Shown here piece after piece: positions 1,290 through 43,614 of a DNA stretch of 64,000 nucleotides. The position numbers were made by a program, and so were the translations under genes. This DNA is from Escherichia phage BB1. The first letter of the stretch is position 1, and each line of letters opens with the position of its first letter. The notes below the pieces were generated by a model. It searched no databases and was not told the origin of the DNA. It was given only the letters and a program-made list of their open reading frames with translations. The stretch is from sequence record NC_106597.1; one strand, 5' to 3'.

Positions 1290-1318
1290 ATTATACAGAA
1301 CTTTTGGAAACTAAGCAA
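1290..1318 (-). promoter_or_regulatory. early promoter, sigma70-like (minus sense TTGCTT-17 bp-TATAAT)
   Basis: Plus-strand attata at 1290-1295 and aagcaa at 1313-1318 with 17-bp spacer; member of the repeated promoter family. Confidence 0.6.
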
Positions 1319-1583
1319 CTACATTTTTTAAGAATTTGATGCCTTTCTTTTTCTTCTTATATTTCCACGTTAATGGATTCTGTCGATTATGAACGCTTGA
1401 GATCTTTGTCTCGTCAAAGTTCTTCAATATCATGTAATCACAAGATAATTGTTCTAATGGAATGTGATCACCGTCAAAAGCATATACATAAGGCTGTTGA
1501 CTAGCACGATAATGATAGACTTTGTTAATTCTACGTTTCAGCGACTTATCCGCGCAGTAAATAAAGAAATTTTCAGGATGCAT
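1311..1583 (-). CDS. hypothetical protein (90 aa)
   Basis: ORF with AAAGGAG RBS before ATG. Confidence 0.5.
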   Translation of the reverse strand: MHPENFFIYCADKSLKRRINKVYHYRASQQPYVYAFDGDHIPLEQLSCDYMILKNFDETKISSVHNRQNPLTWKYKKKKKGIKFLKNVVA

Positions 1584-1600
1584 CAGCAGCTCCTTTAAAT

Positions 1601-1675
1601 TGGTGCACCCCGTTGGTAACGATCCAACCTCTCAAGCTCTTCAGGCAAGCGCTAATCCATCTCAGCTAAAGGTGC
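1601..1675 (-). tRNA. tRNA, tentative anticodon GAA (Phe); non-canonical (U-U mismatches in anticodon stem, T-loop ATCGTTA)
   Basis: Manual fold: acceptor GCACCTT/GGGGTGC, T-stem GGTTG/CCAAC, anticodon loop CTGAAGA; anticodon stem has only 3 of 5 pairs. Confidence 0.45.
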
Positions 1676-1681
1676 AAATTT

Positions 1682-1758
1682 TGGCAAACCTACTAGGACT
1701 CGAACCTAGACCGTACGGTTTTGGAGACCGACATGCTGTCCAGTAACACTCTAGGAAT
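1682..1758 (-). tRNA. tRNA-Trp (anticodon CCA), tentative
   Basis: T-arm CTAGG-TTCGAGT-CCTAG, anticodon loop CTCCAAA, encoded CCA; acceptor and D-arm pair poorly. Confidence 0.5.
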
Positions 1759-1766
1759 GCAGAAAT

Positions 1767-1843
1767 TGGCGTCCTGTGCGGGGATCGAACCCACAAATCC
1801 TACCTTGAAAGGGTAGTGACTTTACCAGTTTGTCTAACAGGAC
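1767..1843 (-). tRNA. tRNA-Glu (anticodon UUC)
   Basis: Manual fold: perfect acceptor (gtcctgt/acaggac), anticodon stem ctacc/ggtag with loop rc of ttgaaag, T-loop TTCGATC, encoded CCA. Confidence 0.75.
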
Positions 1844-2325
1844 TTAAATTGCTTATTGGATAGATTGTTAAACTCGGAAAGTATTTCGTTTACACCTCTG
1901 TCTAACACTACCCATTCATTAAGCCGTTCAGGAAAGCTATTATGAAGCATTTTCTCCGCTTCTCTAGCATTAAACCAAAATGACCAATGTATTAACTTAT
2001 AATCACGTAAAGGAGAATAGGTTTGGTAATTTCCTAATCTTGTTTTAGGATCAGAAGACATACCAATTTTTACATAGTTATCCCAAGCTGGGTTAGTTAT
2101 TGCGTAAATAAAACCACAGCTGGATTTTTCTCCAATACTTTTGTTATACTTGATAAAAGATAGTGCAGATAACTTCAAGCTATATCGACGATTACTATCG
2201 CGACCAAAGTTAGCTGTACCGAATGTGAGGCTTTCTAACATTAGATCTTTGTTTATATCAGCTGGTGAACCCAACTGTATAATACCCCTATTTGCAGCTT
2301 CTTGAATTATCCGATCAATATACAT
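1834..2325 (-). CDS. T5orf172-type GIY-YIG-like domain protein (putative homing-type endonuclease)
   Basis: 163 aa; motif CGFIYAITNPAWDNYVKIGMSSDPKTRL resembles the GIY-YIG/T5orf172 core; AAAGGTAAAGG RBS; stop codon overlaps the 5' end of tRNA-Glu. Confidence 0.55.
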   Translation of the reverse strand: MYIDRIIQEAANRGIIQLGSPADINKDLMLESLTFGTANFGRDSNRRYSLKLSALSFIKYNKSIGEKSSCGFIYAITNPAWDNYVKIGMSSDPKTRLGNYQTYSPLRDYKLIHWSFWFNAREAEKMLHNSFPERLNEWVVLDRGVNEILSEFNNLSNKQFKSC

Positions 2326-2342
2326 ATCCTTTACCTTTAATT

Positions 2343-2430
2343 TGGTGGGCGTTAATGGAGTCGAACCACTCGAGTCGCAATGACCAGGGATTTACAATCC
2401 CCTCCGCTACCACTTACGGAATAAACGCCC
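2343..2430 (-). tRNA. tRNA-Tyr (anticodon GUA), long variable arm
   Basis: Manual fold: acceptor GGGCGTT/AACGCCC, anticodon loop TTGTAAA, long variable region, T-arm AGTGG-TTCGACT-CCATT, CCA encoded. Confidence 0.75.
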
Positions 2431-2558
2431 ATATTTAAAAGTATTCAAATACTAGTTTAAACACTTTTAAATATGTTTCCAAATTAGATAACTATTATAC
2501 CAAGTTTTAAGGCACTGAGCAAGTCAAATTTTAAAGAACTTGCTCAGTGCTGTATTAG

Positions 2559-2834
2559 TTAGTCGAACTTAGGAGTGACAGTTAAGGAGAATGGAAGTTC
2601 GAAGACTTCTTCGCCCTCATCACTAACAGTAATTACACGACCTTTAAGTTCAGACATTGAAATATCAATATCAGCTTTTGCATCTGGAGCCATGCCAGCT
2701 TCAACACATTTAGCTTTAATTTCCGGCAGAAGTTCTACATCGTAGAAATAAAGCCATTCAATCTCACCTTCCCAGCCTTCCCAGGATTTACAGATTGCAC
2801 TTTCAATACCAGTTGCTATAACACGATTTTGCAT
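2559..2834 (-). CDS. hypothetical protein (91 aa)
   Basis: ORF with GAAGGAG RBS. Confidence 0.5.
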   Translation of the reverse strand: MQNRVIATGIESAICKSWEGWEGEIEWLYFYDVELLPEIKAKCVEAGMAPDAKADIDISMSELKGRVITVSDEGEEVFELPFSLTVTPKFD

Positions 2835-2924
2835 TCGTTAACTCCTTCATCAATTTATATAACTATTATACCAGAAATTTAAAGCAAAAGGCAAGTACAT
2901 TTTTAAAAATTCTGTTTGGAGGAG

Positions 2925-3131
2925 CTAAACTCCAGATTCTTCAGCTAAGTCTAGGCTAATAAGAGATATAGCCATAATTGCTGCTCCGTGTTCTCTTTCT
3001 CCTGTCTCTTTAGCTAGGGTTATAATATCAAGAAATTGCTTATGAAAGTCTGCAACCTCTTGAGTCATACCTGCCTCAGCAATCATGCCTTTAAGCATGA
3101 AACGTTGTGCGGTAATTTCGGGATTAGCCAT
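2925..3131 (-). CDS. hypothetical protein (68 aa)
   Basis: ORF with GGAG RBS. Confidence 0.45.
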   Translation of the reverse strand: MANPEITAQRFMLKGMIAEAGMTQEVADFHKQFLDIITLAKETGEREHGAAIMAISLISLDLAEESGV

Positions 3132-3291
3132 GTTGTTTCTCCAGTTTCATGTTTAATAGTCTACAAATAAAATCAATGTCTTCATCTGTGCCTAGATCTC
3201 TATCTTCAAGAGTTGCCTTGAAGTTTTTCGTCAATTCCATGAGGATAACTTCTCTAGAACGACGTGTTGGCGGAGGTGGATGTCTATACAT
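3124..3291 (-). CDS. hypothetical small protein (about 55 aa, proline-rich N-terminus), below ORF-track size cutoff
   Basis: Hand-translated MYRHPPPPTRRSREVIL...; AAGGAAATAAG RBS; stop overlaps start of downstream gene. Confidence 0.4.
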   Translation of the reverse strand: MYRHPPPPTRRSREVILMELTKNFKATLEDRDLGTDEDIDFICRLLNMKLEKQHG

Positions 3292-3305
3292 CTTATTTCC
3301 TTAAG

Positions 3306-3382
3306 TTGGTAGGGGTGGTGGGATTCGAACCCACAAAACCTGAATTTTAAGTCCAGTACCTATGCCAATTCGATTACACCCC
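3306..3382 (-). tRNA. tRNA with anticodon UAA (Leu-type) but short class-I variable loop
   Basis: Manual fold: acceptor GGGGGTG/CACCCCT, anticodon arm CTGGA-CTTAAAA-TTCAG, variable GTTTT, T-arm GTGGG-TTCGAAT-CCCAC, A73, CCA encoded; D-arm does not pair canonically. Confidence 0.55.
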
Positions 3383-3484
3383 CATGTAATCAGTTTATTA
3401 GTTGGTACATATTATAGCCTAGTGAAAATCCTACTACTAGTCCCACAAACCAACCAATATAATAATCTTTTAGTTTCACAGGTA

Positions 3485-3670
3485 TTATCCTCGTTCAATA
3501 TCTAGGGAAATACCGCAGTTAGGATTAATACCTGTACCGTTGCAATTTGAACAAATCCAGATATTGCAAAAAGTATCTCCTGCTTCTGCATCAGAACTTT
3601 CACCAATTCCCCTACATTCAGGGCAGGCACATTCTTCTAGCTCTTGCTTGAGTTCTTGAAACTTAGACAT
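3485..3670 (-). CDS. small Cys-rich zinc-ribbon-like protein (61 aa)
   Basis: CxxC...C...CxxC pattern (CACPECRG...CNIWICSNCNG); AAGGAG RBS. Confidence 0.5.
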   Translation of the reverse strand: MSKFQELKQELEECACPECRGIGESSDAEAGDTFCNIWICSNCNGTGINPNCGISLDIERG

Positions 3671-3679
3671 ATAGTCTCC

Positions 3680-3868
3680 TTAGTCAATTACTTTTGAGGC
3701 TTCAAGGGAGTCGATATAGTATACGTTTTCTACCATAATCATATAATCTGCCACTTTATCCATAGCTTGGGCCTCAGAGGTAGCTCTGGCTAACCTATAT
3801 CCTTTTTTATATTCATCCGGGTATTCTCTATCTTGAATAAACACAACATAAACTATGTATAATTCCAC
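3680..3868 (-). CDS. hypothetical small protein; start uncertain (GTG at 3868 or ATG at 3763)
   Basis: Track ORF 3680-4015 overlaps tRNA 3888-3965, so truncated to the first plausible start after the tRNA with a GGGGA RBS. Confidence 0.3.
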   Translation of the reverse strand: MELYIVYVVFIQDREYPDEYKKGYRLARATSEAQAMDKVADYMIMVENVYYIDSLEASKVID

Positions 3869-3887
3869 TTGTAATCCCCTAATTAAG

Positions 3888-3965
3888 TTGGTGGCTCCCC
3901 GAGGATTCGAACCTACGTACCTTCCGGTTATGAGCCGGGTGCTCATACCATATGAGCTTGAGAAC
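3888..3965 (-). tRNA. tRNA-Met or tRNA-Ile (anticodon CAU)
   Basis: Manual fold: acceptor GGTTCTC/GGGAGCC (with G-U), D-arm GCTC/GAGC, anticodon arm CCGG-CTCATAA-CCGG; T-stem only 3 bp; CCA encoded. Confidence 0.55.
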
Positions 3966-3971
3966 CAAAAT

Positions 3972-4065
3972 CTGGAGGAAGATGCCAGACTCGAACTGGC
4001 ACACCATGTTTCCACAGTTACTGGCTGTTTAGCAAACAGCTCCCTTACCTTTAGGGTTAATCTTC
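3972..4065 (-). tRNA. tRNA-Ser (anticodon GCU)
   Basis: Manual fold: perfect acceptor GGAAGAT/ATCTTCC, 3-bp D-stem, anticodon arm GCTGT-TTGCTAA-ACAGC, long variable arm, T-arm GCCAG-TTCGAGT-CTGGC, CCA encoded. Confidence 0.65.
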
Positions 4066-4087
4066 CGAATTTATAAGATATATTATA

Positions 4088-4609
4088 TTAGAAATTTAGC
4101 TTCATAGCAAGAAAATTTTTCAAGTTTTCGGTAGACATCTCATCTACATCTACAGGAGAAACAAAGCCGTTTAATTTTCTAGCAAATTTTTCACCATCGG
4201 GATCATTGTCTCCAACAGCTACCAATTTAAAAGGTAGTAATTTCAGTTGCTTTAATAACGCTTTTCCTGGAGAAGAACCCAACATTGCTAGGGCTGGATA
4301 ACCAGCGTTATGTAACGCAACTGCCTTAAATACAGATTCAGCAATCAATACTACTTTTTCATCTCCATTGAGAGTTTCTAGTCCCCATACACACTGGGTA
4401 GTAGAATAAGTAAAGTATTTAGCTTCAAAGGGGCACTTACCATGACCTTTTGGAGCAGAAGGATTATAAGTTTGATAGCCCCTCAACATCCCAGAGAAGT
4501 CATACAACGGGACTGTTAGCCATCCTTCTGGACTTAACCAGCAATGATATTTATCTGTATCAAATCCCCTAGATAAGAGGTGCTGTGTTAGCTCATCAAC
4601 ATTCATATT
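4088..4609 (-). CDS. Toprim-domain-like protein (about 173 aa)
   Basis: Conserved-looking E (IAESVF) and DxD (VGDNDPDGEKF) resembling the Toprim fold; start moved to MNVDELTQ with GAGAGGAACC RBS downstream of promoter 4637-4665. Confidence 0.45.
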   Translation of the reverse strand, partial: NMNVDELTQHLLSRGFDTDKYHCWLSPEGWLTVPLYDFSGMLRGYQTYNPSAPKGHGKCPFEAKYFTYSTTQCVWGLETLNGDEKVVLIAESVFKAVALHNAGYPALAMLGSSPGKALLKQLKLLPFKLVAVGDNDPDGEKFARKLNGFVSPVDVDEMSTENLKNFLAMKLNF

Positions 4610-4636
4610 TGGTTCCTCTCTCAAATTTATAGATAT

Positions 4637-4665
4637 ATTATACAGAGAATTTAGCATTCAAGCAA
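4637..4665 (-). promoter_or_regulatory. early promoter (minus sense TTGCTT-17-TATAAT)
   Basis: attata 4637-4642, 17-bp spacer, aagcaa 4660-4665. Confidence 0.6.
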
Positions 4666-4781
4666 TCAAATTTTTTAACTTTTTAGAGGAAAATCATAGG
4701 GCACTTAAGGGTAGCAGATAAGTGGTGAGGACCAAAATTTGTGACCCCACTAAAAATCCGGGGGCAATTTTTAAAGACCCC

Positions 4782-4810
4782 TTGACATTTTCGCTGGGGT
4801 AGTGTAAAGT
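4782..4810 (+). promoter_or_regulatory. sigma70-type promoter (TTGACA-17-TAAAGT) sharing the 13-mer TTGACATTTTCGC with the element at 34512
   Basis: Consensus -35 at 4782-4787; 17-bp spacer; -10-like TAAAGT at 4805-4810. Confidence 0.5.
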
Positions 4811-4872
4811 ATATGTTATGGATGAGTGATCAAAGAGACACACATTTTCTATATACTAGGAGGTGTCAAAAA

Positions 4873-5859: not shown

Positions 5860-5880
5860 TATTAAGGGGAGGAGCCCATT

Positions 5881-6297: not shown

Positions 6298-6306
6298 GGA
6301 GGAAAT

Positions 6307-6501: not shown

Positions 6502-6511
6502 ACCAAAAACA

Positions 6512-6548: not shown

Positions 6549-6556
6549 CCTTAAAT

Positions 6557-6592: not shown

Positions 6593-6616
6593 TGGTTCGA
6601 AGATTACGTGTAACTA

Positions 6617-8250: not shown

Positions 8251-8470
8251 GTTACTACATAAGTGATTTCCACACCCCACTATTTATAAATCAGAGAAGA
8301 GTTTAGGGGAGAGGTTTCAGACGCCTCATTTTACACGTTCTAGCCACTAACCGGGATTGCCGCCCCCTGTGTACTAGTTTTACAACTAACCCACCGACTC
8401 TATTCAATGCGCTCCGGTTGGGATTCTGCACTCAGCGTAATCGGCTCGCTGTTCCCTAATTTATGAATAT

Positions 8471-8499
8471 ATTATACAGAATTTATAAGCATTTAGCAA
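8471..8499 (-). promoter_or_regulatory. early promoter (minus sense TTGCTA-17-TATAAT)
   Basis: attata 8471-8476, 17-bp spacer, tagcaa 8494-8499; conserved caatttatgaa downstream. Confidence 0.65.
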
Positions 8500-8507
8500 A
8501 TGAATTT

Positions 8508-8942
8508 TTAGAAAAATTCACTAGCAATCAAAGCAGTTGTTTTACCGTCATAACGTCCTGGAAACTCTGCCTTAATGGTTTTCATTAAGAGAGCTTTGGT
8601 AATGCCGGGGTTTAGCTTAACCAGTTCTGCAAAGTATTTACGAATTTCAGTTTCAGTCAGTTGACTTGGCTGATACTCTTGCAGCATGGAATAAAGCAGT
8701 TGCTCATAGTCTACATCAGTAGGGACTTTCGTACCAACTTTAATAGCGCGCTGTTTTGCATTTTCTAGAGCCTTAATCTGAGCTTTCAGATAGGCTACAA
8801 ACTCGGTTCGAGTAACAATGTCTTTATCAATACGTTGCAGGTCGCCAATCATGGTCTGAAGATTAAGTGCCCGCTCTTTATCACCGTGAGTACGTGCTAG
8901 ACTAAGCAGTCCACGAAGGGTCGTTAGGATATTTTCACCCAT
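8508..8942 (-). CDS. hypothetical protein (144 aa)
   Basis: ORF; start overlaps stop of upstream small ORF (TAATG). Confidence 0.5.
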   Translation of the reverse strand: MGENILTTLRGLLSLARTHGDKERALNLQTMIGDLQRIDKDIVTRTEFVAYLKAQIKALENAKQRAIKVGTKVPTDVDYEQLLYSMLQEYQPSQLTETEIRKYFAELVKLNPGITKALLMKTIKAEFPGRYDGKTTALIASEFF

Positions 8943-9112: not shown

Positions 9113-9143
9113 ATTTCGCTTCCTCTCATTAATTTATGAAAGT

Positions 9144-9172
9144 ATTATACAGAAATTTAAGTATTTAAGCAA
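9144..9172 (-). promoter_or_regulatory. early promoter (minus sense TTGCTT-17-TATAAT)
   Basis: attata 9144-9149, aagcaa 9167-9172. Confidence 0.6.
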
Positions 9173-9180
9173 ATAAATTT

Positions 9181-9648
9181 TTAAGTTTTAGTGACAACAG
9201 GTTTATAAAATGTATGTCCCTTAATCTTAGTTGTTTTCTTAAACTTCTTTGTCCAGTAAGGTTTATCTTTACCGCTATGAAAGTATAACGCTCCATATGT
9301 GGGATCTTGCGGTAAATCAACGTAGTATATCACTCTAGCTAAATTCTTAGCGGTTTGCCAAGCCTCATCAGTTTTATCAACTTTTGGTCTCTTAGATACC
9401 CAAGAGAACTGGTTAGACTGATATACTACTTTACAGTAGGAATCCGGGAATTTACCGGAGTTTACACGGTTTTTAGTAACATGTGCAATCGCCGTCATTC
9501 CCTTTATGCCCTCACCACGACTTTCGAAATAGATATTTTTAGCAATGCAATCTATTTCTTTTGCATCGTGCGATGCCTGACTACTAAAGCTGAAGGTAAG
9601 GGCAGCTACTAAAAGCAAAGCTGCCTTCATTCTTTTTACTCCTGCCAA
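9181..9648 (-). CDS. secreted cell-wall hydrolase, SleB-like
   Basis: N-terminal signal peptide (MKAALLLVAALTFSFSSQA); motif IAKNIYFESRGEG...VYQSNQFSW typical of the SleB/cell-wall hydrolase family. Confidence 0.65.
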   Translation of the reverse strand: MAGVKRMKAALLLVAALTFSFSSQASHDAKEIDCIAKNIYFESRGEGIKGMTAIAHVTKNRVNSGKFPDSYCKVVYQSNQFSWVSKRPKVDKTDEAWQTAKNLARVIYYVDLPQDPTYGALYFHSGKDKPYWTKKFKKTTKIKGHTFYKPVVTKT

Positions 9649-9953: not shown

Positions 9954-9982
9954 AATAGCCTCGTTTCATCAATTTAAAAATA

Positions 9983-10011
9983 TATTATACAGATAACTTA
10001 GTAAATTAGCA
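9983..10011 (-). promoter_or_regulatory. early promoter (minus sense TTGCTA-17-TATAAT)
   Basis: attata 9983-9988, tagcaa 10006-10011. Confidence 0.6.
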
Positions 10012-10395
10012 AATACATTTTTAAATTGTGAAACTAGTAAACCGATAAACAGCCTAGAGGCGCCACAGGCCATATCTTATGAGCCATGTACCTTTGATCT
10101 AGGGTTTGAATCATCAACGAATACTTTGCATCTTTTAGCTTTAGAAGTTTAGAAGTTTGAGTTCTTTAAACTTTTCAGCTTTCATACTTAAATGTTGATC
10201 TTTGAAGTTGTGTCGGTAATATCAACGACGCTTTGTTCTTACGTGTCAGCTTAAAAGGCTGGTGTAATAAACATAATCTCCAATAGATTATACTTTATAG
10301 TATGGTCAGCGGTCTTATTTAACCTCGTATTTCAACCGCTGCTGCGAGGTAAGATGCTTGGGCTTTCGTCTACCGATTTACTAGCTTTTAAATTA

Positions 10396-11270: not shown

Positions 11271-11310
11271 ATTTGTTTTCCTTTTATTGTTTTCTCAAAT
11301 TTATGAATAT

Positions 11311-11339
11311 ATTATACAGAATTTTGGAGCCGGAAGCAA
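11311..11339 (-). promoter_or_regulatory. early promoter (minus sense TTGCTT-17-TATAAT)
   Basis: attata 11311-11316, aagcaa 11334-11339. Confidence 0.6.
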
Positions 11340-11340
11340 A

Positions 11341-12042
11341 TCAAATTTTCATTTTTTCGATCATAGCTGCAACACAATAGCTCTCAACTAAGGCATCAAA
11401 TGCTGGGTCGTGCTTAACCGGATAGATCCCATAACGAATGGTGTCCATCTTCTCCATTTTAGCTTTTGCCCAGCTAATACCCTCAGCCTCTAGATCTTTG
11501 TAACTATAACCAGCTTGCATCCAGAGATTACGAAGAGATCTAACATTGCCCAAATTCCAGAATTTCCACGGAACTACCTCTTCATTGGTTCCAGCATGGA
11601 ACGTGTTTGCAGAGTAGATAGTCATATCAAACTCTGGGCCATTGCCATAATACAGAGCATTTTCGCCTAGAGCCAACTCCATAATATTTTGAGCCATAGA
11701 GAAGGCAGCATAGTTTGAGCCAAATTTATTAGTGCAATGATGTTTACCATTTTGGAAGGCAATCAGTTTTGGATTACGCTCCTTCATAGCTTCCATAATG
11801 TGGATAGCAGACGGGCTATTTTTAGCTTGATCCATCCAGAATGCTAGAGTAGATGCTGTAACTTTGGCACCAGAATTAAGCTGATCCTGCACATCCAAAG
11901 TAACAAATACTAAGTCAGGGTCTTTATCAATCCCATGCATAGCCACAAAAGCGAAAGAAGGCATTGCGATATGAGTAGTACCACAATCTCCTGGAGTTCC
12001 CAGAGATTCAATATCTAGCATACCAAATGGTTTTACTTTCAT
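11341..12042 (-). CDS. DEDDh-type 3'-5' exonuclease (DnaQ-like fold)
   Basis: Exo motifs LDIES (D-x-E), FD, and H-x4-D (HDPAFDA); AAAGGATAAG RBS. Confidence 0.65.
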   Translation of the reverse strand: MKVKPFGMLDIESLGTPGDCGTTHIAMPSFAFVAMHGIDKDPDLVFVTLDVQDQLNSGAKVTASTLAFWMDQAKNSPSAIHIMEAMKERNPKLIAFQNGKHHCTNKFGSNYAAFSMAQNIMELALGENALYYGNGPEFDMTIYSANTFHAGTNEEVVPWKFWNLGNVRSLRNLWMQAGYSYKDLEAEGISWAKAKMEKMDTIRYGIYPVKHDPAFDALVESYCVAAMIEKMKI

Positions 12043-13143: not shown

Positions 13144-13181
13144 TATTTATTTTCCTTTTTGTTTATCAATTTATGAAGTAT

Positions 13182-13210
13182 ATTATACGAGAATTTGAAG
13201 CGTTTAGCAA
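13182..13210 (-). promoter_or_regulatory. early promoter (minus sense TTGCTA-17-TATAAT)
   Basis: attata 13182-13187, tagcaa 13205-13210. Confidence 0.6.
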
Positions 13211-13218
13211 ATGAATTT

Positions 13219-13668
13219 TTAATTTATTAACTGTAAGCTTCTTTTAATTTCAGACCTTACCTGCATCAAAAGAACTCCTAAAGTATTGTCCCCGATGCCT
13301 CGGCAAACACCCCAATATGTATCTCCCCAGGTATTTCCTTCGATCAAAGTTACATTTTTTGTTGCTAACAGTTTGTCTCTCAAATCAGGGATTGCAAACT
13401 TTAACCGTAAAAGCTCTAGCATTACATCATCTTTTACCTTATCCCAGTCAGAGCGTAGAGTTAATTTACGTCCTCTACGTTTGGCAACTCCTGCATTTAG
13501 GGAGCGTAGTACATGAGCTACATCATCTTTTTGGTCGGATTTCATAGCCTGAAAAGCATGTTCTACAGTATCAGCATGCCATATTTCATTTAGATATTCG
13601 AAAGTAATTGGTGATAAGTAAAAGTTAGATAAAAAACTATAAGTACCTTTAAATTCAGTAATCTTCAT
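13219..13668 (-). CDS. NADAR (YbiA-like) family protein
   Basis: Motifs YSFLSNFY and EHAFQAMK characteristic of the NADAR/DUF1768 family. Confidence 0.7.
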   Translation of the reverse strand: MKITEFKGTYSFLSNFYLSPITFEYLNEIWHADTVEHAFQAMKSDQKDDVAHVLRSLNAGVAKRRGRKLTLRSDWDKVKDDVMLELLRLKFAIPDLRDKLLATKNVTLIEGNTWGDTYWGVCRGIGDNTLGVLLMQVRSEIKRSLQLIN

Positions 13669-13949: not shown

Positions 13950-13976
13950 AAAGCCCTCCTCACTTTCAATACGAAT

Positions 13977-14005
13977 ATTATACTAAATTAGAGGGCTTTA
14001 AGCAA
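13977..14005 (-). promoter_or_regulatory. early promoter (minus sense TTGCTT-17-TATAAT)
   Basis: attata 13977-13982, aagcaa 14000-14005. Confidence 0.6.
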
Positions 14006-14025
14006 GAAAATTTTTAATTTATTTA

Positions 14026-14783: not shown

Positions 14784-14808
14784 TATATACCTCCAATTTA
14801 TAAAATAT

Positions 14809-14837
14809 ATTATATTTAAATTTCACTAAATAAGCAA
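14809..14837 (-). promoter_or_regulatory. early promoter (minus sense TTGCTT-17-TATAAT)
   Basis: attata 14809-14814, aagcaa 14832-14837. Confidence 0.55.
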
Positions 14838-14852
14838 ATGAAATTTAAATAT

Positions 14853-17406: not shown

Positions 17407-17437
17407 TGATTTTCCTCTTTCTCACTATTTCAGGAAT

Positions 17438-17466
17438 ATTATAACAAATCTGGTAGCGATTAGCAA
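17438..17466 (-). promoter_or_regulatory. early promoter upstream of nrdB (minus sense TTGCTA-17-TATAAT)
   Basis: attata 17438-17443, tagcaa 17461-17466. Confidence 0.6.
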
Positions 17467-17482
17467 GTAAAATTTCAAAGAA

Positions 17483-19844: not shown

Positions 19845-19986
19845 TTGGCTTTCCTTTTTATAGTTATCAGGATTTAAGGAATATTCTACTTTATTATCGG
19901 TCATTAGGCAAATAAAATTTTCTGATAGAAAAGGCCCGAGTATTTTCATACCCAGGCCCTGTATATTACCAGTCTAGCTTTTTAGC

Positions 19987-20962: not shown

Positions 20963-21037
20963 AAATAACACTCCTATAGTGTACTTCGCTAACAGAGGAT
21001 CAACAAAAAGATCTTGTTTATCAACTTACAAATATAT

Positions 21038-21066
21038 TATACCAATATATACAGTAAAAAGCAACT
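21038..21066 (-). promoter_or_regulatory. early promoter upstream of phoH (minus sense TTGCTT-17-TATAAT)
   Basis: attata 21038-21043, aagcaa 21061-21066. Confidence 0.6.
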
Positions 21067-21177
21067 ACAATTTTAAATAAGCCTATGATATTGCATTTAA
21101 ATAAAAAATTTGCTTGCTTTTAATGGAAATGTATGGTATTAGATAATCATTTTATACCGCGTACATAGGCGCGTGAT

Positions 21178-21206
21178 TATACTATTTTAAGTACAAAATA
21201 GCAAAT
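21178..21206 (-). promoter_or_regulatory. second early promoter in divergent region (minus sense TTGCTA-17-TATAAT)
   Basis: attata 21178-21183, tagcaa 21201-21206. Confidence 0.55.
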
Positions 21207-21275
21207 AAATTTTTTAACAATTTGCTAACCTTTTAGCACAGATCAAAATACAATATCTAAGAGAAAAATTATATT

Positions 21276-23213: not shown

Positions 23214-23246
23214 AGCCAGGTTGCTAGTCGACCTGGCTTTTATTTT
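23214..23246 (+). terminator. rho-independent terminator after nrdD
   Basis: Hairpin agccaggt...acctggct followed by TTTTATTTTATTT. Confidence 0.65.
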
Positions 23247-23248
23247 AT

Positions 23249-23277
23249 TTGCTTTCAGCCAAAAATTTATGTATAAT
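23249..23277 (+). promoter_or_regulatory. early promoter (TTGCTT-17-TATAAT)
   Basis: -35 23249-23254, -10 23272-23277, followed by conserved tttataaatttgagagg leader and RBS. Confidence 0.7.
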
Positions 23278-23305
23278 AGATTTATAAATTTGAGAGGAGA
23301 AAGAT

Positions 23306-26684: not shown

Positions 26685-27137
26685 ATGTCATTCACACAGC
26701 AAGAACTTTTAGATAACTTCCGATATGAAGATGGTAAGTTATTTAGAACTACAGGAAGAAATGCAGGGAAAGAATGTTGTGTTTCTACGGGTAACGGATA
26801 TTATCGTATATCTCTAGGGAATAGGACTATGCTTCGGCATAGAGCAATATTTTTAATGCATCATGGATACTTACCTGATTTAGTAGATCATGTGAACACT
26901 ATAAAAGGTGATGATCGTATTGAAAACCTTAGAGAGCAGACAGTATCTGGTAATCTAAGAAATATCAAATATAAGAAAGGAATGCATGTTTACCCTTCTG
27001 GTAGTAAGAACTGGCAAGTAGTATTTACTATTAACCGTAAACGTATAGTTAAAGGAACATATGACAACTATGAGGTTGCATGTTCTATGGCCAAGATGTT
27101 TAGAGGTCAATTATACGGTAGGGAATCAATCCAGTAA
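26685..27137 (+). CDS. HNH homing endonuclease (HNH_3 + AP2-like DNA-binding domain)
   Basis: HRAIFLMHHGYLP...VDHVNTIKGDDRIENLREQT motif; start set at MSFTQQ after GGAGGTGAGG RBS. Confidence 0.8.
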   Translation: MSFTQQELLDNFRYEDGKLFRTTGRNAGKECCVSTGNGYYRISLGNRTMLRHRAIFLMHHGYLPDLVDHVNTIKGDDRIENLREQTVSGNLRNIKYKKGMHVYPSGSKNWQVVFTINRKRIVKGTYDNYEVACSMAKMFRGQLYGRESIQ

Positions 27138-27145
27138 AATTTCAT

Positions 27146-27175
27146 TTGCAAGGGAGTATTATTTTATAGTATAAT
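27146..27175 (+). promoter_or_regulatory. early-type promoter (TTGCAA-18-TATAAT) without an adjacent ORF
   Basis: -35 27146-27151, -10 27170-27175; followed by degenerate leader and no start codon for about 500 nt. Confidence 0.5.
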
Positions 27176-27672
27176 ATTCCCATAAATGAGAGACATTAGT
27201 AAAAATTGATTTTGCTAATTTTTCTTGTTTACAATCCGCGATACGGAACAGTTAGGCTGCCCCATTAAGGGTTGTTTTAACTGTTACGTGTTAGTTTTTA
27301 AACAAATAGTTAATAGAATACTTAGCGATCTGCGTCCCGTAGGAACCCTGGTAAGGCCTCGAAGCAACCTAGATAGAGGTGGTTGTGAAGTGAGACGGGA
27401 GGAGTGAAAAACTCCGAGACGTGATTCTGTAAGTTATATTGCATCTAGTATGAGCTAGTATATGAAGCATTAGGTGAGCAAATCTGGCTTAGCGGCCATC
27501 CTCAAGGATTTGTGCGGTATAGCAAAGCAGCAGCGCAGCGTGAAAGTGGAAGTTGCCACCCCACTTCAGTATTTGCAATTAATTTGTTGAGAAATTGACA
27601 GTAACAGTTGTTCTATTCTTTCTGAATAGTCCTAAAGAAAACTTATTTCATTTCCAACACAGGAGTATTGTT
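27176..27672 (+). other. long untranslated segment; candidate structured RNA or regulatory leader
   Basis: About 500 nt without a credible RBS+ORF, several GC-rich hairpins (e.g. ggagt-gaaaa-actcc at 27401-27415), GC-richer than typical intergenic DNA here. Confidence 0.3.
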
Positions 27673-30964: not shown

Positions 30965-31181
30965 AAAATGGGAAACAAGGAAGTTCCCAGTAAAAGAGCG
31001 TAAAGTTCCTGTTTACGACACTTCGGAAAAGCTATGTAGGGTGGTACCACATAGATTAGCTGGCATCCCTAACATATCCGAGTGGTTACTTAAACAACGG
31101 AAAACAAACGTGTCTCTTCGCATCGGCTTTGAATTAGATAAAGTCTATGCTGAACTTGCTTCTTTGCTCAAGGAATCGTAA
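30948..31181 (+). CDS. hypothetical small protein (77 aa)
   Basis: Start set at MTVKNKKW with GGAGAGAT RBS; overlaps HNH 3' end in another frame. Confidence 0.45.
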   Translation: MTVKNKKWETRKFPVKERKVPVYDTSEKLCRVVPHRLAGIPNISEWLLKQRKTNVSLRIGFELDKVYAELASLLKES

Positions 31182-31189
31182 AAATTTAT

Positions 31190-31218
31190 TTGCTTTCAGG
31201 AAAATTTTTCTGTATAAT
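31190..31218 (+). promoter_or_regulatory. early promoter (TTGCTT-17-TATAAT)
   Basis: -35 31190-31195, -10 31213-31218; conserved leader attcataaatttgagagagg. Confidence 0.7.
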
Positions 31219-31249
31219 AGATTCATAAATTTGAGAGAGGAGTTTAAAT

Positions 31250-33402: not shown

Positions 33403-33419
33403 TTCTTGGCTTTTTCTTT
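33388..33419 (+). terminator. rho-independent terminator
   Basis: gccaagaa...ttcttggc hairpin followed by TTTTTCTTT. Confidence 0.65.
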
Positions 33420-33429
33420 ATAAATGTAT

Positions 33430-33458
33430 TTGCTTTCAACTCAGTTTTATTATATAAT
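33430..33458 (+). promoter_or_regulatory. early promoter (TTGCTT-17-TATAAT)
   Basis: -35 33430-33435, -10 33453-33458. Confidence 0.65.
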
Positions 33459-33489
33459 ATTTATATAAATTGATGAGAGATATAAATAA

Positions 33490-34540: not shown

Positions 34541-34604
34541 ATTATCATTCAGTTGAGGGATAGAAAGTTATGGCGAGGGTAAGCAAAGTTAGTTAAAATT
34601 GTAG

Positions 34605-34633
34605 TTGCTAAATGCTTAAATACTTGCTATAAT
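34605..34633 (+). promoter_or_regulatory. early promoter (TTGCTA-17-TATAAT) upstream of ligase C-terminal subunit
   Basis: -35 34605-34610, -10 34628-34633. Confidence 0.65.
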
Positions 34634-34660
34634 ATTTATATAAATTGATAAGGAAGAAAT

Positions 34661-37758: not shown

Positions 37759-38645
37759 GTAGAATAACAGAACTACTTGATCTGAAAGGCATTGAATATA
37801 AAGACACAGGTGGGGACATCCTCATCTGTTGTCTCAATCCAGATCATGACGATAAACACCCAAGTTTGCGTATTGATCCTGAAACAGGTATTATGCACTG
37901 CTTGAGTTGTGGCTTCGGTAAAGGTATACCGAGCATTTACCATTATTTTAATGAGACTCAGTACCGACAGTCCCCAAGACTATCACAGGTACGTAAAAAG
38001 ATTTCAGAGATTAGGAATGGATCTACGAATCTTGCAATTCCTGAATCTGCTTACCTTTTCGAAGGTGATTTCCGAGGTATAAGTTCTAAGACCTTGAAGA
38101 AATATTTTGCTTTCCAACACCAAGCAGACTGGGAAGGCAGAATTGTATTCCCAATCACAGATGCTGTTGGACGCAATATCCTATTTTTGGGTCGTTCTAT
38201 AAACAGTTCTGCCCCTCCTAAATACCTAGTAAAACCAAAACAAGTTTCACCGCCAATTTTTCCTGTACGATATAATACTCCAGTTCTTATTCTAGTTGAA
38301 GGTATCTTTGATATGCTGAATCTAGAGGATAATGGTATAGACTATGCTTCTTGTTGCTTTGGTACACATCAGTTTACTTCAGACAACATTGCAGATAAGT
38401 TCAGTCCGTATATTATTGCTGGTGTTAAAGTTGTTGTTATCTTACTAGATAATGATGCTTCTGGTAATAAAGCTGCACAAGCACTGGCTAAGCTAATTCG
38501 TACAAAAACGCGTTTAACACCTGTAGTTGCTAACTTTCTTCTGCCTGAAGGTAAAGACCCAGGTGACTTAAATAAAGAAGAAATTGATATGTTAGCAAAA
38601 CGTATTGAAATTTTAGTTGCTGAATCGCTTAAAGATTTGGTATAA
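37755..38645 (+). CDS. DNA primase (DnaG-type: zinc-binding + Toprim)
   Basis: Zinc ribbon CCLNPDHDDKHPSLRIDPETGIMHCLSCG; Toprim motifs LVEGIFDMLNL and ILLDNDASG. Confidence 0.8.
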   Translation: MSRITELLDLKGIEYKDTGGDILICCLNPDHDDKHPSLRIDPETGIMHCLSCGFGKGIPSIYHYFNETQYRQSPRLSQVRKKISEIRNGSTNLAIPESAYLFEGDFRGISSKTLKKYFAFQHQADWEGRIVFPITDAVGRNILFLGRSINSSAPPKYLVKPKQVSPPIFPVRYNTPVLILVEGIFDMLNLEDNGIDYASCCFGTHQFTSDNIADKFSPYIIAGVKVVVILLDNDASGNKAAQALAKLIRTKTRLTPVVANFLLPEGKDPGDLNKEEIDMLAKRIEILVAESLKDLV

Positions 38646-38671
38646 TAGTCCTAAATAACTGAGGAGCTACT

Positions 38672-39001
38672 ATGGAATATGTATATATTTATGCGGATGT
38701 TCCAGTGTATGATAGTATAACACACAAAGAGGTTAAACTAGAGCGGTTTACAACACTGGAGTCCCTTAATAAACGAAAGAATTTCCATTTATTTGGTGAT
38801 CCTAAATTACCTGCATCTTATATTTACTTTAAAGTAAAAGATACAGGTCAAGAGGTATACCTAACATATGATTGGGCTGTTGTAGAAAATACTGAGCAAT
38901 CTATGAAAGCGCTAGATGCTTTTCTGCGTATAGATGAAGAATTTCGGGTACTAGAAAAGCAGCGCAATGAAATGCGTAAATTACTTCACACCTATAAATA
39001 G
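38672..39001 (+). CDS. hypothetical protein (109 aa)
   Basis: ORF with GAGGAG RBS. Confidence 0.5.
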   Translation: MEYVYIYADVPVYDSITHKEVKLERFTTLESLNKRKNFHLFGDPKLPASYIYFKVKDTGQEVYLTYDWAVVENTEQSMKALDAFLRIDEEFRVLEKQRNEMRKLLHTYK

Positions 39002-39004
39002 TAT

Positions 39005-39033
39005 TTGCTATTATCCCAATATTTTGATATAAT
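39005..39033 (+). promoter_or_regulatory. early promoter (TTGCTA-17-TATAAT) upstream of DNA polymerase
   Basis: -35 39005-39010, -10 39028-39033; leader contains inverted repeat ggtaagt...acttacc. Confidence 0.65.
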
Positions 39034-39094
39034 ATATTGGTAAGTTAGAGAAGAAACACTGAAGTTATACTTACTTACCAAGAGGAGATTAAAT

Positions 39095-41662: not shown

Positions 41663-42152
41663 TTTCAAATTGCCCGTATATGCTTTACGGGCGTTTGTAT
41701 CAATTGAGCAAGAAGGTGATTATTCCGTAATTACAACAAGATATAATAAATATGTGCTAGATAATAGGAAGTTGCCTGGCACATTTTCTCAACGTAGGCT
41801 TATTCTATTTGAGAAACGGAAAGAATTACCATACAAGCTCTATCCTATTAGAGGTAGAATATCAATGTTGTCCCAATTAGTTGGGTCAAAGCGTAGCCAA
41901 TTTATAGATTCTGATGGAAATCTTATTAACTGGAAGAAAACTACGTTCTATGATGTTGTCACCTCTAAAGTTTTGCATTCAGCTAGAATCTATAACGGAA
42001 AATACCAATGCTATGTAGCTAAAGTTCCATATCCATTTGTATTATCCTATGTTCCAGCTTATATAAGCTATATTCTGGTAAATAATAGCCCTGTTATTTA
42101 TCAAGTCCATCAAGAGGAGCCTGAAATTCCTAGACTTAGAATAAAATTATGA
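41655..42152 (+). CDS. hypothetical protein (165 aa)
   Basis: ORF overlapping polymerase stop. Confidence 0.5.
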   Translation: MLNFKLPVYALRAFVSIEQEGDYSVITTRYNKYVLDNRKLPGTFSQRRLILFEKRKELPYKLYPIRGRISMLSQLVGSKRSQFIDSDGNLINWKKTTFYDVVTSKVLHSARIYNGKYQCYVAKVPYPFVLSYVPAYISYILVNNSPVIYQVHQEEPEIPRLRIKL

Positions 42153-43501
42153 AGGTTGTTATATCTAATAAAGCCTATTTCAAGCCCGATGATGAACTTT
42201 GGGATTACTGTAGTAAGCAAACCACTTATCACATAGAGACAATGACTAGTAAATACCCTATTATGTATAAGAATAGTGGTGTTGTTGCCAAAGAGATTAA
42301 GTGGATTCCTATTACGCGTCTGGACTTACTAGATGCTAAAGGAGTAAAATACGAATTAGTCGATAAACGCACATTAGCTCCAGTAGATATACCAAAACCT
42401 AAGTTCAAGCTGCGTGAAGAAGACCAGCTCCCAATATATGAAGAGTGCGATGATACCTGTATTATTAATGGTAAGCCTGGATTTGGCAAAACTATCCTAG
42501 CTCTTGCACTTGCATATAAATTTGGCCAGAAAACTTTGGTAATTTGTACCAACACATCTATTCGTGAAATGTGGGCGGCAGAAGTTCGTAAATGGTTTGG
42601 GTTTGAACCAGGTATCATAGGTTCTGGGAAATACAATATTGATCCACCAATTGTGGTCAGTAATATTCAAACAGTGAATAAACATGCGAATAATCTTTCT
42701 AAAGTATTCGGTACTGTTATAGTTGATGAAGTTCACCATTGTGTGGCTACAACTTTCACTAACTTCCTAGAAATATCATGTGCCCGCTATAAGATTGGAC
42801 TATCCGGTACATTAAAACGAAAAGATGGTCTACAAGTTATGTTCAAAGATTTCTTTGGATATAAGATCTTTAGTCCGCCGGTTAATAATACTGTTGCACC
42901 TACAATCCATAGGTACTCCGTGCCTGTTGAGTTATCGGGTAACCAAAACGTACCATGGGCATTACGTGCTAATGATGTGTATAATCATCCTGAATATCGA
43001 GAGACTATTATAAACCTGGCGCATTTATATGTGAATATGGGGCATAAAGTGCTCATTGTAAGTGACAGAACAGAGTTGATCCAAACAGTACTAGAAGCTC
43101 TTGCACAGCGTGGTGTTACAACATACGAAATTATAGGGGCAACCCACTTGGATGACCGATTAAAAATTCAGGAAGATATAGCAAAAGGTGGACCTTGTGT
43201 ACTTGCAGCAGCTCAAAGTATCTTCTCTGAAGGTATTTCCCTTAATGAGCTGTCTTGTTTAATAATGGGAAGTCTCATTAATAATGAATCTCTAATCGAA
43301 CAGCTTGCAGGACGTGTTCAACGTATTGTCGATGGTAAACTCGACCCTATTGTTGTAGATCTAATTATGAAAGGTGGCACTGGACTAAGACAGGCTTCCG
43401 GACGTATGGCAGTATATCGTAACAACGGGTGGAAAACTATTACCATGACTCCGGAAAAAGCAGTTCAATTAGCTAAAATTGCATTTGGCAACAGCTCATA
43501 A
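42149..43501 (+). CDS. SF2 (DEAH-type) helicase
   Basis: Walker A GKPGFGKT, Walker B VIVDEVHH, C-terminal helicase motifs. Confidence 0.85.
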   Translation: MKVVISNKAYFKPDDELWDYCSKQTTYHIETMTSKYPIMYKNSGVVAKEIKWIPITRLDLLDAKGVKYELVDKRTLAPVDIPKPKFKLREEDQLPIYEECDDTCIINGKPGFGKTILALALAYKFGQKTLVICTNTSIREMWAAEVRKWFGFEPGIIGSGKYNIDPPIVVSNIQTVNKHANNLSKVFGTVIVDEVHHCVATTFTNFLEISCARYKIGLSGTLKRKDGLQVMFKDFFGYKIFSPPVNNTVAPTIHRYSVPVELSGNQNVPWALRANDVYNHPEYRETIINLAHLYVNMGHKVLIVSDRTELIQTVLEALAQRGVTTYEIIGATHLDDRLKIQEDIAKGGPCVLAAAQSIFSEGISLNELSCLIMGSLINNESLIEQLAGRVQRIVDGKLDPIVVDLIMKGGTGLRQASGRMAVYRNNGWKTITMTPEKAVQLAKIAFGNSS

Positions 43502-43513
43502 ATGATGTATAAT
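43485..43513 (+). promoter_or_regulatory. early promoter (TTGGCA-17-TATAAT) at 3' end of helicase gene
   Basis: -35 43485-43490, -10 43508-43513, followed by conserved ataaatttgagagag leader. Confidence 0.55.
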
Positions 43514-43584
43514 ATATACATAAATTTGAGAGAGAAAGTTTCGGATTGATAAGAAAGTCCGAAGCAGAAAAATAAAAATTTTAG

Positions 43585-43614
43585 TTGCTAAATTCTCTCG
43601 AAATCTAGTATAAT
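43585..43614 (+). promoter_or_regulatory. early promoter (TTGCTA-18-TATAAT)
   Basis: -35 43585-43590, -10 43609-43614. Confidence 0.6.

Follow-up and report, generated by a model that had tools for sequence, protein, structure and literature searches.

A conserved sequence downstream of the -10 box in the T5-type early promoter family of Escherichia phage BB1

Introduction

In the stretch of Escherichia phage BB1 DNA analyzed here (64,000 nucleotides of NC_106597.1; hereafter the window), a pair of hexamers, TTGCT(A/T) and TATAAT, recurs on both strands, and a common sequence follows the second hexamer. What are these sites, and why does their similarity extend beyond the -10 box? The repeated motif and the conserved bases are real, but they are already known, because what follows the -10 box is the transcription start and initial transcribed sequence (ITS) that earlier work has described. 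We describe here how far this conservation reaches, how it is placed, and which functions may account for it.

Results and Discussion

Distribution of the core sites

The window holds 19 exact TTGCT(A/T)-N17-TATAAT sites, whereas 0.10 were expected from 100 shuffled sequences, the maximum in any of which was 1. Thirteen of them lie on the minus strand (1290-21204) and six on the plus strand (23249-39033). One further exact TTGCTW copy, which has an 18-bp spacer, is located at 43585-43614 (+), and the total is 20. A preliminary description had claimed at least 20 copies on both strands between 1290 and 43614, nearly all with a spacer of exactly 17 bp. Our count reproduced this claim with the same end coordinate: 20 exact copies against about 0.1 expected, the spacer being 17 bp in 19 and 18 bp in one. 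Six relatives with one or two mismatches have the same flanks (2494-, 2865-, 19883-, 27146+, 38617+ and 43485+), and family copies are absent from the late region, 44 to 64 kb of the window. The 26 family members, that is, the 20 exact copies and the 6 relatives with one or two mismatches, are as follows.

1271..1329, minus: T5 P14b ortholog; TTGCTT-17-TATAAT; discriminator AATTAC; predicted +1 at 1283; ITS ATAAATTGAACTG; upstream of a short ORF and tRNA-Cys
2475..2533, minus: variant, T5 P14a ortholog; TTGCTC-17-TATAAT; degenerate ITS CTAATTTGG; feeds tRNA-Tyr (2430..2343)
2846..2905, minus: variant, T5 P15c ortholog; TTGCCT-18-TATAAT; ITS ATAAATTGATGAAGGAG; ATG at +25
4062..4121, minus: T5 P15b ortholog; TTGCTA-17-TATAAT; predicted +1 at 4074; ITS ATAAATTC; tRNA-Ser (4066..3973) directly after
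4618..4676, minus: T5 P15a ortholog; ITS ATAAATTTGAGAGAGGAA; ATG at +25
8452..8510, minus: T5 P16-17 ortholog; ITS ATAAATTAGGGAA; no start codon nearby; feeds the 'RNAX' stable-RNA region and tRNA-Arg
9125..9183, minus: T5 P-D/E33 ortholog; ITS ATAAATTAATGAGAGGAAG; ATG at +26
9965..10023, minus: early promoter; ITS TTAAATTGATGAAACGAGG; ATG at +25
11292..11350, minus: early promoter; ITS ATAAATTTGAGAAAAC; ATG at +35
13162..13221, minus: T5 P-H207 ortholog; 7-nt discriminator; ITS ATAAATTGATAAAC; ATG at +32
13958..14016, minus: early promoter; exact -35/-10 core; without the ITS motif (ATTGAAAGTGAGGAGG)
14789..14848, minus: early promoter; 7-nt discriminator; ITS ATAAATTGGAGG; ATG at +19
17419..17477, minus: early promoter upstream of nrdB; exact core; without the ITS motif (GAAATAGTGAGAAAGAGG)
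19864..19922, minus: weaker variant upstream of nrdA; TTGCCT-17-TAGAAT; without the ITS motif
21017..21075, minus: early promoter upstream of phoH; ITS GTAAGTTGATAAAC; 67-nt leader
21157..21215, minus: second, tandem promoter upstream of phoH; exact core; GC-rich discriminator CACGCG; without the ITS motif
23238..23296, plus: early promoter; ITS ATAAATTTGAGAGGAG; ATG at +23
27135..27194, plus: variant; TTGCAA-18-TATAAT; ITS ATAAATGAGAGAC; leader of about 410 nt, then the ORF of a replication-origin-binding protein
31179..31237, plus: P-N25 ortholog upstream of D2; TTGCTTTCAGGAAAATTTTTCTGTATAATAGATTC then A(+1)TAAATTTGAGAGAGGAG; +1 from PMC7472727
32203..32261, plus: P-N26 ortholog upstream of D3; ITS variant ATAGTTTGAAAGA; 51-nt leader
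33419..33477, plus: early promoter upstream of ligA; ITS ATAAATTGATGAGAG; ATG at +26
34594..34652, plus: P-K28a ortholog upstream of ligB; ITS ATAAATTGATAAGGAAG
38606..38665, plus: variant; TTGCTG-18-TATAAT; without the ITS motif (AAATAACTGAGGAG)
38994..39052, plus: early promoter upstream of the DNA polymerase gene; ITS GTAAGTTAGAGAAG; 55-nt leader
43474..43532, plus: P31A ortholog; TTGGCA-17-TATAAT; ITS ATAAATTTGAGAGAG; no start codon nearby
43574..43633, plus: P31B ortholog; TTGCTA-18-TATAAT; ITS ATAAATTCGAGGAG; last copy of the preliminary description

Identity of the promoter family

P-N25 is the "T5 promoter" of expression vectors, and the T5 early promoters are among the strongest sigma-70 promoters known. 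These promoters (P-N25, P-N26, P-K28a, P-H207, P-D/E33 and others) reportedly come from work of the Bujard laboratory in the 1980s, Gentz and Bujard being said to have published on them in 1985 in J Bacteriol 164:70. The phage of the window is a Tequintavirus with 96-97% identity to T5 and to many other Tequintaviruses. The T5 RefSeq record NC_005859 annotates P-N25, P-N26, P-K28a/b, P-H207, P-D/E33, P13-P16 and P31A/B at orthologous places, and the core site at 31190 (+) is the ortholog of P-N25, with the same sequence as T5 P-N25 from -46 to +20. The orientation of the promoters matches that of the early genes, and their positions are orthologous to those of the annotated T5 promoters. The present analysis established in this way that the family is identical with the annotated T5 early promoters, and the name "early promoter family" given to it beforehand was correct.

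Comparing the family with that of T5, we found the same orthologous positions, TTGCTW, 17-bp spacer, TATAATA, A block at -43 and ATAAATT at +1. Nothing essential differs: a few promoters were gained, lost or altered (for example, 14809- and 17438-), and the sequence divergence from T5 is about 3%. Recognition by the E. coli sigma-70 holoenzyme and early kinetics in infected cells are known for the T5 orthologs (PMC7472727), and by analogy both would hold for the promoters of this phage. Recognizing the family in the window mainly serves annotation, as it marks the early transcription units of a T5-like phage.

The same description has been published for the T5-like phage AKFV33. Its consensus, which covers 32 promoters, consists of TTGCTw, TATAATA, a spacer of 17-18 bp, AAAAATT at -43 and a "+1 region (TAAATT)" (Niu 2012, PMC3326045). 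That study, however, sees in the +1 block only A/T richness and possible curvature, and it neither separates the ITS from the ribosome-binding site nor tests class specificity.

Conserved sequence after the -10 box

In N25, TATAATAGATTCAT corresponds to -12 to +2, transcription starting at the A seven bases past TATAAT, and ATATT in the discriminator is common to all known early promoters (Klimuk 2020, PMC7472727). Our literature search for a transcription-start-site map or transcriptome of T5 found nothing relevant. When the N25 start is extended to the other copies by alignment, the conserved ATAAATT would be +1 to +7 of the transcript.

Exact ATAAATT was found 6-7 nt past the -10 box in 13 of the 20 copies (background p = 6.7e-4; binomial P = 4e-37). 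The form NTAA(A/G)TT occurred at this offset in 16 of the 20 (P = 6e-38), as opposed to 0 of the 76 other TATAAT hexamers of the window. These values confirm the earlier claim of a conserved sequence downstream of the -10 box, with the qualification that about half of the copies lack its GAGAG part. The motif is missing in 13977-, 17438-, 21176- and 32214+, the last of which has the degenerate form ATAGTTTGA. Its strict form is missing in 6 of the 26 window members and in 15 of the 38 annotated T5 early promoters; thus, the motif is not obligatory. The window contains 43 ATAAATT in total against 29.5 +/- 5.4 expected, and 16 of them directly follow a -10 box. A dispersed repeat independent of promoters was rejected, because these 16 copies account for the excess.

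The motif keeps its register to the -10 box, with an offset of 6 in 17 of 22 copies and of 7 in 4 of 22. The start codon lies anywhere between 18 nt and more than 300 nt away from it. The aligned consensus of the downstream region was ATAAATTgGAg. In the ungapped profile, the information content was 0.65-1.3 bits at +2 to +7, which is similar to that of the A/T block at -45 to -37 and well above that of the spacer. Three regions were at background level: spacer positions -29 to -22, everything upstream of -50, and the sequence past about +14. An A is present at -6, right after TATAAT, in 18 of 19 copies. In the same profile, each position from -45 to -42 is A in 15-19 of 19 copies, and -40 to -38 is T-rich.

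Two structural features of the DNA were considered. An inverted repeat of the -43 block AAATTTAT with the ITS ATAAATTT is perfect in P-N25 but is not a feature of the family, as the mean number of matches was 5.6 of 8 over 19 promoters compared to 5.3 of 8 in random A/T-rich controls. The other was phased A-tract curvature, with AAATTT-like blocks at about -41, -20 and +5. In N25, the spacings between the blocks, counted by hand, are about 20 and 25 bp, which puts the block near +5 out of phase with the helix; this block also adjoins the melted region.

The motif and the RNA leader

The preliminary description suggested that the transcribed leader itself is functional, for example as a shared RNA leader or a processing site. 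If the conserved sequence acted as RNA, it might enhance translation as a 5' leader (an A/U-rich stretch for binding S1 together with a Shine-Dalgarno sequence), stabilize the mRNA or mark a processing site. Most leaders are indeed 18-35 nt long and consist of ATAAATT, then GAGAGGAG and ATG, and folding predicts little pairing in their 5' 13 nt, as expected of a ribosome landing pad. However, the position of the motif is fixed to the -10 box and not to the start codon. The motif is also kept at tRNA and stable-RNA promoters and where the leader measures between 50 nt and more than 300 nt, and the presence of a nearby start codon tracks with the purine tract, not with ATAAATT. We therefore regard an action as RNA as decidedly improbable.

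A scan of the 64 kb with Rfam at gathering thresholds gave only 12 matches, all to tRNAs, and no leader family. Folding +1 to +45 of 22 leaders with ViennaRNA revealed no shared stable structure (mean z -0.6, heterogeneous folds). On these two results, a shared RNA structure or a known RNA family was rejected. With no common structure, no Rfam match and a motif locked to the -10 box, the proposed shared RNA element or processing site was not supported. The idea of a functional leader was right in part: its function would be to help transcription start and the polymerase escape, and to provide a site for ribosome binding. The GAGAG(GAG) purine run is mainly the Shine-Dalgarno region of very short leaders (18-35 nt), and promoters of tRNAs or stable RNAs lack this run. 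At 8471- the motif precedes the stable-RNA region. At 4082-, where tRNA-Ser follows the promoter directly, the motif constitutes the whole 8-nt leader (5' extension) of the tRNA, and removal of this leader by RNase P would be expected.

Conservation in diverged relatives

When T5 and relatives were added to the alignment, the conservation after the -10 box persisted; its loss with more promoters was the outcome that the preliminary description had named as refuting its claim. In Vibrio phage Achelous (57% identity in the DNA polymerase), aaAAAa-TTGCTA-N17-TATAAT-aNtNNC-ATAAA(T/G)TTGA recurs about 20 times, and a promoter about 14 nt upstream of a tRNA-Ile likewise carries ATAAATT. The motif was also found in Klebsiella phage FZ41, Enterobacter phage KKP_3711 and Vibrio phage 234P3. 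When the promoter upstream of D2 was aligned from six phages, four elements were invariant, namely TTGC, TATAATA, ATAAA (+1 to +5) and, in the ribosome-binding site, AGGA, whereas the spacer and the upstream flank had diverged. Judging from these alignments, the ATAAATT motif is under purifying selection across diverged relatives.

It could be argued that the downstream similarity has no function and reflects only the recent spread of a duplicated promoter cassette through the genome. The copies are numerous and much alike, and some pairs, such as 33430+ and 34605+, have a common discriminator as well. Yet the information content is confined to discrete blocks, and the same blocks are kept in Vibrio, Klebsiella and Enterobacter phages despite differing intervening bases. 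We give this explanation almost no weight, and duplication alone is already contradicted.

A probable role in initiation and promoter escape

The explanation that we prefer, with an estimated probability of about 0.8, is that the TTGCTW-N17/18-TATAAT sites are early-class sigma-70 promoters of a T5-like phage and that the conserved ATAAATT is part of the promoter. The host RNA polymerase holoenzyme would read the early promoters with no need for a phage sigma factor, and each promoter is a stereotyped module of about 60 bp. Its upstream part is the A/T block at -45 to -37. This A-rich block lies directly upstream of the -35 hexamer, and from its sequence we take it to resemble a proximal UP-element subsite of the E. 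coli rrnB P1 type. The core consists of TTGCT(A/T), a spacer of 17 bp (sometimes 18) with an AAATTT-like stretch, and TATAAT with an A after it. Next comes the discriminator, six A/T-rich nucleotides of the form ATATT(C/T), and initiation would take place at the A of (C/T)ATAAATT. We think that ATAAA-(0 or 1 nt)-TTGA, which spans +1 to about +10, may fix the start at a pyrimidine (-1) and A (+1), and that the easily melted ITS may allow fast escape of the polymerase from a very tightly bound promoter, as the published behavior of N25 suggests.

N25 is the standard model for control of promoter escape by the ITS. Replacement of its ITS is reported to lower productive output about 10-fold; the native ITS gave the fastest escape on supercoiled DNA, with a t1/2 of 0.3 min compared to 11 min for the anti-ITS, and the function of +1 to +20 was placed at promoter escape (Kammerer 1986, as related in PMC5961368 and PMC12464699). 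The copy at 31190 has the native N25 ITS. The N25/N25anti experiments, however, cover one promoter only, and the same action of the ITS at the approximately 20 sister promoters would follow by analogy. On the other side, it is not obvious that escape alone would call for one particular sequence. An unrelated ITS, that of T7 A1, supports good escape from N25 (PMC12464699), large-scale screens gave no simple ITS consensus, and (T/C)G steps are linked to slower escape and initiation pausing (PMC5961368). The conserved TTG at +6 to +9 is such a (T/C)G step.

This step raises the thought that the motif induces a pause. TAAATT at +2 to +7 could be a -10-like element (TAnnnT) that, together with the TTG pause step, causes a sigma-70-dependent or initial pause, as at lambda PR'. 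In its sequence, TAAATT retains A2 and T6, the -10 positions that matter most, and (T/C)G steps near +6 to +9 have been linked to initiation pausing (PMC5961368). Its likeness to the lambda PR' pause element, a possible -10-like TAnnnT hexamer within the first 7 transcribed bases, is one of sequence and was judged by eye only, and T5-type promoters have no known Q-like factor or Q-binding element. To our knowledge, T5 has no Q-like antiterminator, which also counts against such a pause. Moreover, the literature searched describes neither a pause at native N25 nor one at about +16/+17 with a cognate antiterminator, and native N25 escapes fast on supercoiled DNA (PMC12464699). A pause of this kind seems very unlikely to us.

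Class specificity of the motif

In T5, the motif is present in 23 of the 38 early promoters, in 0 of the 3 pre-early promoters and in 1 of the 5 promoters of the late region. The sole late-region exception precedes a lipoprotein gene annotated lpp (Cor superinfection exclusion protein). Among the T5 early promoters, counting by hand, 19 of the 25 with a TTGCTW-type -35 hexamer and 4 of the 13 with other -35 types have the motif.

This early specificity would also fit another explanation, namely that the discriminator and ITS form a class tag read by a phage factor (for example, the RNAP-binding gpT5.026 or D5), which would act on early shutoff or timing through the DNA or the nascent 5' end. 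The exact sequence is kept across subfamilies with different hosts, which exceeds what generic "easy escape" predicts. In addition, gpT5.026 weakens the binding of RNAP to the -5/+2 segment, and the early-specific discriminator has been proposed to underlie class-specific effects (Klimuk 2020, PMC7472727). The T5 annotation has D5 involved in early-gene shutoff. On the other hand, the literature searched reports no sequence-specific binder of the motif, large effects of the N25 ITS are seen with pure host RNAP in the absence of phage proteins (PMC12464699, PMC5961368), and many early promoters are without the motif. Taken together, a class tag appears improbable.

The role of (C/T)ATAAA(N)TTGA could exceed that of an escape-friendly sequence, since its conservation matches that of the -10 box in phages ranging from E. 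coli T5 to the Vibrio Demerecviridae, and since it is confined to the early class. Considered jointly, the two possibilities that it is a recognition element, as DNA or as nascent 5' end, for a conserved early-timing phage factor, or a programmed initiation or sigma-dependent pause, are still rather unlikely.

The register to the -10 box, the class specificity and the conservation across diverged relatives are direct observations of the present analysis. They make a modest addition to what was known: among Demerecviridae subfamilies with different hosts, the motif at the start and in the ITS varies no more than the -10 box does, and it goes with the early class. This invariance sharpens the question of why this exact sequence is used and not any escape-friendly one, and the tie to the early class may bear on the mechanism of the T5 early-to-late switch.

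Early promoter family in the window

A family of TTGCT(T/A)-17 bp-TATAAT early promoters with a conserved transcribed leader had been proposed for positions 1290-43614. In our scan, the exact TTGCT(A/T)-N17-TATAAT core was found at 19 sites of the 64-kb window, as compared to 0.10 in shuffled sequences. A relaxed scan reproduced the last copy of the preliminary description, which has an exact core.

Members of the promoter family
1290 to 21204, minus strand: exact copies with a 17-bp spacer (n = 13)
23249 to 39033, plus strand: exact copies with a 17-bp spacer (n = 6)
43585-43614, plus strand: exact copy with an 18-bp spacer (relaxed scan)
2494-, 2865-, 19883-, 27146+, 38617+ and 43485+: near-copies with flanks as in the exact copies (n = 6, relaxed scan)

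The strand distribution agrees with early transcription units that diverge; family members change strand at about 21.2 kb, where the GC skew changes too, and the late region beyond 44 kb of the window contained no family member. At this divergence point (21017-21340, where the skew changes sign), tandem promoters at 21036 and 21176 (minus) lie upstream of phoH, and a TTGACA-17-TATAAT promoter for nrdD at 21274 (plus) faces them. The second phoH promoter (21176) has a GC-rich discriminator and lacks the motif of the initial transcribed sequence (ITS).

The window is 96-97% identical to T5 and many Escherichia/Salmonella Tequintaviruses, and it shows every sequence-level feature of T5-type early sigma-70 promoters. 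The T5 reference annotates promoters at the orthologous sites by their historical names (P-N25, P-N26, P-K28a/b, P-H207, P-D/E33, P13a/b, P14a/b, P15a-c, P16-17 and P31A/B). Site 31190 corresponds to P-N25 and matches T5 at every position between -46 and +20. The family is that of the textbook T5 early promoters and is already known. Gentz and Bujard (1985) reportedly remarked on homologies outside the hexamers of T5 promoters. The family consensus, including the downstream block, has been published for the T5-like phage AKFV33 (Niu et al., PMC3326045).

The downstream motif is linked to the promoter

Twenty test sites were chosen by the -35/-10 definition alone. Exact ATAAATT was located 6 or 7 bases past the -10 box at 13 of the 20 sites, and NTAA(A/G)TT at 16 (binomial P ~1e-37 against the window's own background), while none of the 76 other TATAAT hexamers of the window had the motif. 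ATAAATT occurs 43 times in the window (29.5 +/- 5.4 expected), and 16 copies directly follow a -10 box. These results indicate that the motif is a promoter-linked feature; a dispersed repeat was rejected on the same counts. Both the family and its downstream conservation are real and highly significant.

In the column profile, the conserved blocks were -45 to -37 (AAAA[A/T]TTTA), both hexamers, A at -6, T at -3, and +2 to +7, and the profile fell to background in the spacer (-29 to -22), 5' of -50 and 3' of about +14. The motif-anchored consensus is A-t-a-T-t-(c/t) followed by ATAAATT(g/t)GAgAg. Of 22 copies, 17 have the motif start 6 nt past the -10 box and four have it 7 nt past; it parses best as ATAAA, 0 or 1 base, and TTGA. 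Klimuk et al. (2020, PMC7472727) assign TATAATAGATTCAT to -12 to +2 of N25, which places +1 at the A of cATAAATT, so that ATAAATTTGAGAG spans +1 to +13.

The T5 annotation contains 46 promoter features, which we scored for the strict motif. It was present in 23 of 38 early-region promoters (plus several near-variants), 0 of 3 pre-early promoters and 1 of 5 in the late region, the exception lying upstream of lpp (lipoprotein, Cor superinfection exclusion protein). By our own count, 19 of 25 T5 early promoters with a TTGCTW -35 box had the motif, as against 4 of 13 others. TTGACA-like promoters of the T5 early region (NC_005859) without ATAAATT are 13212-, 20998-, 37954+, 53884+ and 66366+ (P-K28b); 19368- (TTGACT) has it. 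Presence of the ITS motif thus goes along with the type of -35 box. The late-region ortholog of T5 P-G25 at 59609-59667 (minus; TTGATA-17-TATAAT) lacks the early ITS motif, and its leader, ATTAAAGAGGAGAAATTAACTATG, is the ribosome-binding site known as 'RBSII' in the pQE/pDS expression vectors.

Conservation in distant phages

Vibrio phage Achelous (Ermolyevavirinae), whose DNA polymerase is 57% identical, carries about 20 promoters that follow the pattern aaAAAa-TTGCTA-N17-TATAAT-aNtNNC-ATAAA(T/G)TTGAgA (MK796244, 35001-85000). Its start motif is as in T5, ATAAAGTTGAGAAA or ATAAATTGA, despite the other subfamily and host, and one such promoter precedes a tRNA by about 14 nt. The papers that we consulted contain no mention of the T5 early architecture and start motif in Achelous. 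The motif also occurs in Klebsiella phage FZ41, Enterobacter phage KKP_3711 and Vibrio phage 234P3.

When the orthologous promoter upstream of D2 was aligned from six phages, the positions without any change included TTGC, TATAATA, ATAAA (+1 to +5), the T of +7 and, in the ribosome-binding site, AGGA, and the spacer and upstream flank had diverged. The downstream conservation therefore does not vanish as more promoters are aligned. It reflects selection and not recent copying; pure common descent is hardly credible. The single addition to published knowledge is that, across Demerecviridae subfamilies, conservation of the start and ITS motif equals that of the -10 box, and that the motif is linked to the early class.

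Two elements in the leader

In most copies, the leader is 18-35 nt long and has a purine run (GAGAGGAG, GAAGGAG, AAAGGAA) ahead of the start codon. Promoters that retain ATAAATT but lack the purine run are 4082-, with tRNA-Ser only 8 nt downstream, 8471-, which feeds a stable-RNA and tRNA-Arg region, and the long-leader promoters 27146+, 39005+, 43485+ and 43585+. Thus the downstream conservation consists of two elements: one comprises the start and the initial transcribed sequence and is fixed in position relative to the promoter, and the other is the ribosome-binding site of short leaders.

A role of the conserved sequence in RNA or translation is quite unlikely. At gathering thresholds, an Rfam scan of the window returned tRNAs only and no leader family; the folds of +1 to +45 of 22 leaders were heterogeneous (mean z -0.6) with no shared structure, and the conserved 13 nt were mostly unpaired in them. 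The suggested shared RNA leader or processing site thus found no evidence here.

A probable role in promoter escape

The evidence best supports the view that ATAAATT(T)GA belongs to the promoter, taken in a wide sense. It would set the start at A(+1), after a pyrimidine at -1 and 3' of an A/T-rich discriminator, and would supply an ITS tuned so that polymerase quickly escapes a promoter to which it binds extremely well. The functional data are those published for N25. When its ITS is altered, promoter strength in vivo changes by more than 10-fold (Kammerer et al. 1986, summarized in PMC5961368). N25anti, in which the ITS is replaced, is about 10-fold less productive than N25, and on supercoiled DNA the half-time of escape was 0.3 min with the native ITS versus 11 min with the anti-ITS (PMC12464699). 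By analogy, the ITS may act likewise at the sister promoters of N25.

The escape model leaves unexplained that the unrelated T7 A1 ITS also supports escape (PMC12464699), and that screens gave no simple ITS consensus, with (T/C)G steps tied to slower escape (PMC5961368). That selection maintains precisely this sequence, and that it is confined to the early class, therefore leaves room for a class-specific reader of the motif. For the RNAP-binding gpT5.026, Klimuk et al. suggest that the early-specific discriminator underlies its differential effect (PMC7472727). We consider such a reader rather unlikely, and a programmed pause encoded by the motif very improbable.

Neighbouring elements

The Rfam tRNA model matched three loci uncalled by ARAGORN (1604-1675, 3892-3966 and 8176-8247, minus; 33-40 bits). 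In the early-gene tRNA region of T5, the record lists tRNA-like stable RNAs with no assigned function, and the three loci may belong to this class.

Between promoter 27146 and the gene for the replication-origin-binding protein, about 410 nt (27182-27594, plus) contain no convincing ORF, and the first 45 nt after the promoter form an unusually stable predicted hairpin (-11.7 kcal/mol, z = -5.0). T5 shares the long gap (promoter 58999-59073, CDS from 59545). The stretch may correspond to a regulatory RNA or be related to the origin. At the P31A ortholog, the ITS is directly followed by another stable predicted hairpin (43520-43564, plus; GUUUCGGAUU...AGUCCGAAG, z = -3.6), which separates P31A from its tandem partner P31B and could serve for attenuation or termination.
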